Below, piece after piece: positions 1 to 1,666 of a DNA stretch of 4,911 bases. The notes under the pieces are model-generated. The model searched no databases. It saw only the letters and a program-made list of their open reading frames with translations, and had not been told where the DNA came from. Position 1 is the first letter of the stretch. Each line of letters begins with the position of its first letter. This stretch comes from a virus. Taxonomy: Duplodnaviria > Heunggongvirae > Uroviricota > Caudoviricetes. The stretch covers positions 1 to 4,911 of the IMG/VR virus record IMGVR_UViG_2526164619_000013; one strand, given 5' to 3'. The position numbers and the translations under genes are program-made.

Positions 1-158
1 TCACCAGTCAAAACTTTTCACCAGCGTCAGCTCGCCAGCATTACGCATCGGTACAATAAATGTTTCCTGTTTCTCATTGACCGATCCTTCATCGGTGATC
101 AGCGTCAGTTGGGCGGTGGTTAATTCCATTTCGCTGCGCCCACCATAGTAGTTGATAT
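1..158 (-). pseudogene. 3' fragment (about 52 codons plus stop) of an unidentified gene whose 5' part is replaced by the IS911-like element
   Basis: The minus-strand frame is open from the IS boundary at 158 to a TGA stop at 3..1 (plus-strand tca), giving ...NINYYGGRSEMELTTAQLTLITDEGSVNEKQETFIVPMRNAGELTLVKSFDW*. The ORF-track entry 1..237 is a read-through that begins inside the IS inverted repeat. The sequence looks protein-like, but I cannot assign a family. Confidence 0.35.
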
Positions 159-194
159 TGAAGTGGTCAACAAAAACTGGCCACCGAGTTAGAG
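159..194. repeat. IS911-like right terminal inverted repeat (IRR)
   Basis: 36 bp starting with TGAAGTGG; it pairs with the reverse complement of 1371..1406 (first 8 bp identical, plus shared TGGCCACC and terminal AGAG blocks). The orfB stop codon (169..167) lies inside it. Confidence 0.85.
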
Positions 195-1087
195 TTTTTC
201 CAGTATCGATTTTCCGATTCGTTTGGGGGTAACCCACCGTTATATTCGTGCGGTCTTAGTGCGCTGTAATATCCAACGATATAGTCCGTTATGGCGTGAG
301 CTGCCTCGCTGAAGCTTACGTAACCCACCACCGGCATCCATTCGTTCTTCAGACTCCTGAAGAAGCGTTCCATTGGGCTGTTATCCCAGCAGTTTCCGCG
401 CCGGCTCATACTCTGTCTGATCTGGTATCGCCACAATAACTGCCGGAACTGCCTGCTCGTATAATGACTGCCCTGATCGCTGTGGAACATCACCCCGCCG
501 GGCTTACCACGGGTTTCCCATGCCATTTCCAGTGCTTTCATGGTGAGCCTGCTGTCCGGCGAGAACGACATGGCCCAGCCCACTGGTTTTCTTGCGAACA
601 GGTCGAGAACAACGGCGAGGTACGCCCAGCGCTTACCCGTCCAGATACAGGTCACATCACCGCACCACACCTGATTTGGCTCGGTCACGGCGAACTGCCT
701 TTCAAGGTAGTTAGGGATAGCAACATGTTCATGACCACCACGTTTATACCGGTGAGTCGGCTGCTGACAGCTGACCAGCCCCAGCTCTTTCATGAGCCTG
801 CCAGCAAGCCAGCGTCCCATCTGGTAGCCTCTCCGGGTTGCCATTGTGGCGATGCTTCTTGCTCCGGCCGAACCATGGCTGATGCCATGTAGCTCAAGTA
901 CCTGACTGCGTAATACAGCCCGTCTGCCGTCTGGTTTTTCAGGACGGTTTTTCCAGTATCTGTAGCTGCTGCGATGAACCCCGAACACTTGGCAGAGTGT
1001 GACCACAGGATAATGCGCTCTGAGTTTCCCGATTATCGAGAACTGTTCAGGGAGTCTGACATCAAGAGCGCGGTAGCCTTTTTTAAT
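167..1087 (-). CDS. IS911-like OrfB frame (DDE integrase/transposase catalytic domain), expressed mainly as the OrfAB fusion by -1 ribosomal frameshifting
   Basis: The -1 frame relative to orfA is open from the ATT codon at 1087..1085 ([28 protein letters not shown]...) through ...[27 protein letters not shown] to a TGA stop at 169..167. It carries retroviral-integrase-like DDE-family sequence typical of IS3-family OrfB ([22 protein letters not shown]). Confidence 0.88.
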
Positions 1088-1365
1088 ATTTCATTCTCCA
1101 TTTCAATGCGTTGTAGCTTTTTCCTCAGCTTACGTATTTCGATTTGTTCTGGTGTTATCGGAGAGGCTTTTGGTGTTTTGCCCTGACGCTCATCACGCAG
1201 TTGTTTGACCCATCTTGTCATTGTGGAAAGGCCAACATCCATAGCTTTGGCGGCATCTGCCACCGTGTATTTCTGGTCAACAACCAGTTGAGCTGATTCG
1301 CGTTTAAACTCTGCGCTAAAATTTCTTTTTTCATTGGAGCACCTGTGTTGTTCTGAGGTGAGCAT
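1033..1365 (-). CDS. IS911-like OrfA (transposition regulator, HTH/leucine-zipper protein); N-terminal 0-frame part of the OrfAB transposase
   Basis: The 110-aa ORF ...[100 protein letters not shown] is near-identical to IS911 OrfA as I recall it. The in-frame ATG at 1365..1363 is preceded by GAGGTGAT. The exact start is uncertain (see finding on the A6 run at 1326..1331). Confidence 0.88.
1078..1084 (-). promoter_or_regulatory. Programmed -1 ribosomal frameshift heptamer A-AAA-AAG (recoding site fusing orfA to orfB)
   Basis: The minus strand reads ATG GAG AAT GAA ATA TTA AAA AAG GCT in the orfA frame. The heptamer A AAA AAG occupies 1084..1078, an SD-like GGAG lies at 1099..1096 upstream, and an in-frame ATT codon for orfB sits at 1087..1085. 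This is the architecture established for IS911 frameshifting. Confidence 0.8.
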
Positions 1366-1370
1366 ATCAC

Positions 1371-1406
1371 CTCTGTTCAGGTGGCCAAATTCAGTGTGCC
1401 ACTTCA
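1371..1406. repeat. IS911-like left terminal inverted repeat (IRL)
   Basis: Reverse complement reads TGAAGTGGCACACTGAATTTGGCCACCTGAACAGAG, the partner of 159..194. It is immediately followed (minus-strand sense) by GAGGTGAT-ATG. Confidence 0.85.
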
Positions 1407-1666
1407 GTGTGGCTGAAGCTGAAGTGCGACCGCTGATTGGCGATGTGGTGGCGATGGACTGCGCCGAAGATGTTTACCGTACCGCGCTGGAACAGACGGG
1501 GATCGATATCCAGGGTATTCACCCCGGTGCGTACCGCAGCATGGTGAAGTTTGCCGTTGAGCAGAAGCAGACGGCCAAATCCTCTCCCCGTGTGGCGATG
1601 GATCAGGCCAGCGCATCGACGTTTGCGGCAGATTTCCCCGGTGCAAAACTGAAACGAGGTTACTGA
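1407..1666 (+). pseudogene. 5'-truncated phage gene (C-terminal about 86 codons), possibly the scaffold/protease gene that precedes the head genes; truncated by the IS911-like element
   Basis: The frame is open from the IS boundary to TGA at 1664..1666 (...[85 protein letters not shown]). Its stop lies 1 nt before the next ATG, and the RBS of the next gene (GAGG 1656..1659) is embedded in its 3' end, so it is the upstream member of the operon. The track ORF 1334..1666 begins with a TTG inside the IS and is an artefact. The function is inferred from position only. Confidence 0.55.

Follow-up and report, generated by a model that had tools for sequence, protein, structure and literature searches.

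An IS911 copy without target-site duplication between remnants of yfaP and a prophage head gene in Shigella flexneri K-315: probable trace of an IS911-bounded inversion

The stretch of DNA analysed here, referred to as the window, comprises the 4,911 nucleotides at positions 1 to 4,911 of IMG/VR virus record IMGVR_UViG_2526164619_000013 (Caudoviricetes) and carries a copy of the insertion sequence (IS) IS911 between the truncated 3' parts of two genes. The origin of this joint is the subject of the present analysis. The window is contained, with full identity, in contig AKMY01000053.1; its assembly, GCA_000268165.1, represents Shigella flexneri K-315 (PMC6397287, PMC4924310). To the left of the window, this contig carries rcsC, rcsB, rcsD, ompC and apbE, and its right end stops within an IS1 element. 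The features of the window are the following, with a slash marking a break point or joint here and below:

1 to 158, minus strand: chromosomal 3' remnant of yfaP, codons 207-258 (the last 52) with the stop codon at 1-3, assigned by Pfam and by matches in E. coli
156 to 158: TAT half-site (ATA when read along yfaP), placed by comparison with the intact gene and by the ends of contigs L035 and L036
159 to 1406, minus strand: IS911 copy of 1248 bp, with its right inverted repeat (IRR)-type end at 159-185 and its left inverted repeat (IRL)-type end at 1380-1406
167-1006, minus strand: orfB of IS911 (PF00665; NF033516 transpos_IS3)
1033-1365, minus strand: orfA of IS911 (PF01527)
1078-1084, minus strand: A6G frameshift motif of IS911, recognized in the sequence
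1407 to 1409: GTG half-site, the uninterrupted gene reading ...gccgtcc/GTGtggctg
1407 to 1666, plus strand: 3' remnant (last 86 codons) of a DUF2213 (Pa193_gp24-like) prophage head gene, from homologue comparison
1668 to 4602, plus strand: prophage head module of five further head genes, ending with the opening codons of the gene that follows; identity to the prophage integrated in yfaT of E. coli RMDEC364 is 99.75%
1668-2150, plus strand: cement protein
2150-3178, plus strand: major capsid protein
3182-3529, plus strand: protein of 115 amino acids
3535-3990, plus strand: frameshifted DUF4054 gene
3984-4568, plus strand: protein of 194 amino acids
4603 to 4911, minus strand: end of IS1 with the 3' part of insB, inside which the contig terminates; the same joint is present in contigs L028 and L031

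IS911 is a member of the IS3 family and was first described in Shigella dysenteriae. Judged by its sequence, the element in the window is an ordinary IS911: it shares 99.5-99.9% nucleotide identity with 19 full-length copies from Shigella and E. coli assemblies, and matching copies carry the RefSeq label "IS3-like element IS911". The original prediction of an "IS911-like" element was therefore right as to type, and can be sharpened insofar as this is IS911 itself. The product of orfB scores 299 bits on NF033516 transpos_IS3 (cutoff 160) and also matches PF00665 (rve/DDE), whereas that of orfA matches PF01527, a helix-turn-helix family; together with the overlap of orfA and orfB and the A6G site for -1 frameshifting, the hallmarks of the IS3 family are present. 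The element starts with TGAAGTGGTCAAC... at 159 and finishes with ...GTGTGCCACTTCA at 1406, and its terminal inverted repeats (159-185 versus 1380-1406) are imperfect, being 74% complementary over 27 nucleotides, with the form 5'-TG...CA-3'. With other IS911 copies it shares the common ends 5'-TGAAGTGG...CCACTTCA-3', the orfA/orfB arrangement, the A6G motif and the rve/DDE domain. Three points set it apart: a length of 1248 bp (reference IS911, accession X17613, has 1250 bp as quoted in PMC4924310), the absence of a 3-bp target duplication, and a run of 6 instead of 7 A after the canonical ATG of orfA, which brings an upstream ATG into frame and yields an OrfA of 110 amino acids.

The latter difference deserves a remark of its own. 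At the A-run (1326-1334, minus strand), the canonical start codon is out of frame and the upstream ATG lies at 1365-1363, just inside the IRL end. The 110-amino-acid OrfA variant is widespread, occurring in 72 blocks of the collection with closed genomes among them, although the other IS911 copies of K-315 mostly encode an OrfA of 100 amino acids. Hence, the shorter run of the window copy may be a homopolymer error of 454 sequencing.

The bases directly outside the element are TAT on the left (156-158) and GTG on the right (1407-1409), so the 3-bp direct repeat of a simple insertion is absent, as originally noticed. This mismatch would mean little if IS911 did not normally duplicate 3 bp of its target; three bases would match by chance in 1 of 64 cases. 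The element boundaries were checked on the 19 full-length copies mentioned above, seven of which are flanked by perfect 3-bp repeats (GTG, AAT, GTT, CGT, ATA, CCG and CGC) directly outside TGAAGTGG...CCACTTCA. As these repeats abut exactly the same ends, the boundaries are right, and a shift of the boundaries that would create a duplication in the window, the alternative raised with the original observation, is ruled out. The remaining 12 of the 19 copies lack a duplication as well, and a copy without one is thus commonplace in such genomes. The missing duplication reflects the history of the copy in the window and is no argument against its identity as IS911.

Both flanking genes are broken exactly at the IS. 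On the left, the 3' end of a minus-strand gene had been described, and this gene is yfaP: the flank hits the Pfam domain DUF2135/YfaP_C, and its presence at 90-99.4% identity in 5365 of 5426 E. coli genomes identifies yfaP as a core chromosomal gene. The break lies at nucleotide 619 of 777 (...caggtgt/ATAtcaac). The plus-strand gene whose 3' part forms the right flank encodes the DUF2213 protein and is interrupted at nucleotide 1090 of 1350. The 5' parts of both genes are consequently missing at the IS, in agreement with the original description. A first impression from BLAST that TCA precedes GTG in the uninterrupted phage gene, which would have left the IS boundary ambiguous, was discarded, the actual sequence being tcc.

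The phage segment shares 99.1-99.75% identity with a prophage family of enteroinvasive E. coli and many Shigella genomes; in enteroinvasive E. coli, this family is present at no fewer than two chromosomal sites, and some genomes carry it twice. In E. coli RMDEC364 (L001-L003), the prophage is located in yfaT and its cargo at the tail-fibre end is ipaH, an effector gene of the type III secretion system. A near-identical sister prophage in CFSAN029787 (L034) lies near uspF and ompN and carries sitABCD, genes of an iron/manganese transporter. When 13 copies are aligned, seven substitutions and one indel are private to the window. At all other variable sites the window agrees with the yfaT copy, sharing a G at 3931 with that copy alone, and positions 2299, 2740 and 3931 distinguish it from the sit-linked copy. 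This modest but consistent evidence from sequence comparison suggests that the phage segment derives from the yfaT-integrated copy.

The ancestral layout becomes apparent in RMDEC364, where the prophage, with ipaH at its far end, is integrated in yfaT within the yfaA-yfaT-yfaS-yfaQ-yfaP operon, which is followed by rcsC. Alignment of both flanks to this relative without the IS, as had been proposed, shows the two break points 27,480 bp apart, with DUF2213 and yfaP both on the plus strand. The two genes had been regarded as unrelated, which does not hold, as the prophage sits in the operon of yfaP itself. In this layout, the 3' part of each gene is found to the right of its own break point. Since both genes run on the same strand and both 3' parts lie to the right of the breaks, their tail-to-tail joint needs an inversion; a single deletion would have joined the 5' part of DUF2213 to the 3' part of yfaP, not the two 3' parts to each other. 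In the window, the IRL end adjoins the 3' part of DUF2213 and the IRR end that of yfaP, and from these orientations it follows that the parental IS911 copies were inverted relative to each other. With IS copies so arranged, recombination is generally known to flip the intervening DNA (PMC8072062). Among the possibilities originally put forward, namely deletion or inversion mediated by the IS and recombination of two IS911 copies, only an inversion-type exchange is thus compatible with the RMDEC364 layout, in which the strand of the two genes excludes a single deletion.

The most likely history would start from an ancestor with an ipaH-carrying prophage in yfaT and the order gyrA-yfaA-yfaT'-[int ... 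portal-MuF-DUF2213-capsid ... tail-ipaH]-'yfaT-yfaS-yfaQ-yfaP-rcsC, DUF2213 and yfaP being encoded on one strand. One IS911 would have inserted into DUF2213 with duplication of GTG, and another one, in opposite orientation, into yfaP with duplication of ATA. Homologous recombination of the RecA type between these inverted copies would then have flipped the approximately 25-28 kb between them, leaving each IS911 with half of each duplication and joining the 3' part of yfaP, next to rcsC, tail to tail to the 3' part of DUF2213. The window copy would thereby have received TAT on its left and GTG on its right, each of them presumably one copy of the 3-bp duplication from a separate IS911 insertion. 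Accordingly worded, the window would be one of two novel joints of a 25-28-kb inversion in S. flexneri K-315 produced by recombination of two inverted IS911 insertions, a reading to which we assign a probability of roughly 0.6. A reciprocal joint should then exist elsewhere in the genome, and recombination rather than transposase activity would account for the exchange.

Independent assemblies bear on the individual joints. Fourteen contigs, mostly of 2-5 kb, encode a capsid protein identical to that of the window. Contig L028 (GCA_049894805.1) extends from 75 bp inside the IRL end of IS911 to 73 bp inside IS1, contigs L029 and L032 (Logan assemblies ERR6006252 and ERR6006326) begin 28 bp inside the IS911 end, and contig L031 (ERR200337) spans the IS1 joint. 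Because they are seen in independent assemblies, the IS911/GTG joint and the IS1 joint are real, and they are common to a lineage. On the yfaP side, a partial YfaP protein of 206 amino acids (P0259, labelled S. dysenteriae) pointed to one contig in each of two other assemblies, L035 and L036, both with the order ipaH-'yfaT-yfaS-yfaQ-yfaP-5' and ending at ...caggtgt(a). These ends abut exactly the nucleotide at which the yfaP 3' piece of K-315 starts. In these other isolates, a repeat of unspecified kind therefore sits at the same yfaP nucleotide; the ipaH prophage resides at yfaT, and the yfaP 5' side is kept and collinear, not deleted.

Whether the two flanks are truly linked across the element is a separate matter, as the four joints between IS ends and flanks are the same with or without the inversion, and short-read assemblies consequently cannot tell the two states apart. 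K-315 has IS911 embedded in five or more further contigs, 50-230 kb in size. Three of the six IS911 copies in these contigs show a perfect 3-bp duplication, and two copies without it (melA/IS911/yjdF and rutR/IS911/torC) lie in K-12 gene order apart from a deletion. As the other IS911 copies appear to be resolved soundly in these contigs, IS-spanning joins of this assembly look reliable, and the linkage in the window is probably real.

Several observations nevertheless weigh against an inversion between the yfaT prophage and yfaP. Linkage through the 1.25-kb repeat comes from one draft contig of K-315 only, and neither junction was found in any of 5426 complete E. coli genomes. The yfaP-3'/IS911 joint turned up in no other assembly, and alternative gene calls across the joints (products of 110, 78, 70, 61 and 51 amino acids) gave no match. 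Likewise, the reciprocal joint DUF2213-5'-GTG/IS911/TAT-yfaP-5' was not detected by any probe, few suitable Shigella contigs being searchable. Homology searches with the predicted chimeric proteins found none, nor did exact matching of 19 predicted sequences, fragile guesses that allowed for several alleles of yfaP and DUF2213, for IS911 tails in canonical and 6-A form and for truncation at contig edges. At the DNA level, neither the left joint nor the two reciprocal joints gave an exact pattern match in GTDB representative genomes or JGI metagenomes, which contain hardly any Shigella. The negative results for the reciprocal joint and the complete genomes carry little weight because the collections hold few long contigs of this Shigella lineage. 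Furthermore, the isolates of L035 and L036 may lie outside the K-315 lineage, and in a prophage family with copies at two or more sites, the assignment to yfaT relies on only three informative sites. With the 6-A variant of IS911, the predicted reciprocal joint would fuse the 5' part of yfaP in frame to OrfA.

The strongest of the rival explanations is an assembly artefact, the chimeric contig already raised as a caveat with the original observation. Two simple IS911 insertions, each with its own duplication, would suffice if the assembler had left the shared repeat through the wrong exit and thereby produced a chimeric contig; all four joints would look alike in both configurations, so that only spanning information discriminates, and this is provided by a single draft contig which also fails to cross IS1 at its right end. 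On the other hand, the five or more further K-315 contigs that span IS911 have flanks with perfect repeats or, save for a deletion, follow the gene order of K-12, and a random mis-join among many IS911 flanks would seldom have picked a partner just 27 kb away, which makes a chimera unlikely. Even with a real joint, the phage part might stem from another prophage copy such as the sitABCD-linked one near uspF and ompN, in which case a larger inversion or a complex rearrangement of distant IS911 copies would be involved. The multiple sites of the family and its double occurrence in some genomes speak for this, copy assignment is weak at 99.1-99.75% identity, and Shigella genomes commonly show large inversions around the terminus that are bounded by IS copies (PMC1550401). 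However, the window fits the yfaT copy at all informative sites and departs from the sit-linked one at the three positions given above; moreover, the gene orientations imply that one inversion alone would not produce this joint from a sit-linked prophage oriented as in E. coli. This origin is hence considered distinctly improbable.

The two remaining explanations concern the mechanism at the yfaT site itself. In a one-step transposase reaction, a single intramolecular attack by IS911 (as an IS dimer, or one-ended and targeted to an inverted repeat) would create the inversion together with a second IS copy without RecA. The flanks expected from this route are the same as for recombination, with one old and one new half-site per copy. 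Intramolecular replicative transposition, as for IS26, likewise ends in two inverted copies with such flanks. In addition, the heptamer TGAAGTG, equal to the first 7 bases of the IS911 ends, is located at 1420-1426 in the phage target, 14 bp from the IS end, and may mark an insertion targeted by its resemblance to an inverted repeat or be a coincidence. This heptamer occurs five times in the window against 0.68 expected by chance; two occurrences are the IS ends, and besides that at 1420-1426 there are two more in the phage segment, at 2748 and 3502, which reduces its significance. IS911 transposes by a copy-out-paste-in route via a circle, and reintegration of the circle gives simple insertions with duplications, which counts against the one-step route; IS911 is not known to make such inversion products in one step. 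As nothing observed demands a special pathway, this possibility appears very remote. If true, it would represent a natural case of an IS3-family copy-out-paste-in element inverting DNA without host recombination. A related and similarly remote possibility is that the inverted IS911 pair may still be flipping the 27-kb ipaH-bearing segment within the population. Hardly credible, finally, is an IS911-mediated adjacent deletion of everything between the break points. Deletion is the usual cause of duplication-less IS911 copies in K-315 (melB was lost at one, the rut-tor region at the other), but the same-strand layout would have brought the 5' part of DUF2213 next to the yfaP 3' part, and the block of yfaP-5', yfaQ, yfaS and ipaH has been kept in isolates with the same yfaP break point.

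IS-driven rearrangement of the kind proposed, an inversion between two IS insertions, is already known and routine in Shigella. In S. flexneri, for instance, IS-bounded inversions distinguish Sf8401 from Sf301 and involve IS1, IS629, IS4, ISSfl2 and IS600 (PMC1550401). The principle is the same, recombination of inverted copies leaving non-matching IS flanks (PMC1550401, PMC8072062), whereas the present case concerns IS911, a small segment of about 27 kb and the prophage/yfa operon region, with one of the two joints documented. It adds one more instance of IS-driven decay and shuffling, here hitting the degenerating yfaP/yfa (alpha-2-macroglobulin) cluster and a defective ipaH prophage. No function is implied: the joint is a scar that IS-driven genome decay has left in a dead operon and in a prophage that was already defective. 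At the same time, it illustrates how comparison with relatives can link the lack of a target duplication to one specific rearrangement. The gene order around IS copies in the K-315 draft needs confirmation by long reads. Both the IS911/DUF2213 joint and the IS1 joint are candidate lineage markers.

Some further features of the window concern the prophage head module, which is common as prophage in Shigella and enteroinvasive E. coli and whose Pfam matches point toward head proteins of Pseudomonas phages of the E217-like and XM1-like type; megablast of 1407-4602 against 50,697 GenBank phage records gave no match. At 3970-3974, an extra G in a G-run shifts the frame of the DUF4054 gene, resulting in a product of 151 amino acids with altered C-terminus as compared to 152 amino acids otherwise. 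This indel is private to the window lineage among the 13 aligned copies, yet present in contigs of other isolates. A 454 sequencing error at position 3974 was considered and rejected, since the 151-amino-acid product recurs in those isolates. The IS1 joint at 4602/4603 interrupts an E217_gp28-like gene (start at 4565; 121 amino acids in relatives) after about 13 codons, and its recurrence in L028 and L031 qualifies it as a marker of the lineage.

On the chromosomal side, the 158-bp flank has no 100% match in the E. coli genomes searched, the top matches listed all reaching 99.4%. A C-to-T change at 127-129 replaces Thr by Met in YfaP (ACG to ATG on the coding strand), and comparison with the K-12 copy places the mismatch at that codon; the new ATG served as start of a spurious open reading frame of 42 amino acids in gene calling. 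In K-12, atoA, atoE and atoB follow directly at the yfaP stop codon, whereas this ato part is absent there in K-315 and RMDEC364, in both of which rcsC lies 275 bp from the yfaP stop (L014 4800-8052 versus L016). The yfaP gene has been inactivated independently in several lineages of Shigella and enteroinvasive E. coli (P0008, P0259): in RMDEC364 (L003 19649-20425) it contains an internal stop codon, another truncation, after residue 179 and followed by a foreign tail, is represented by 152 member sequences of one protein cluster, and the IS911 site of the window is a third case. This pattern suggests convergent decay of the yfa (alpha-2-macroglobulin) operon.

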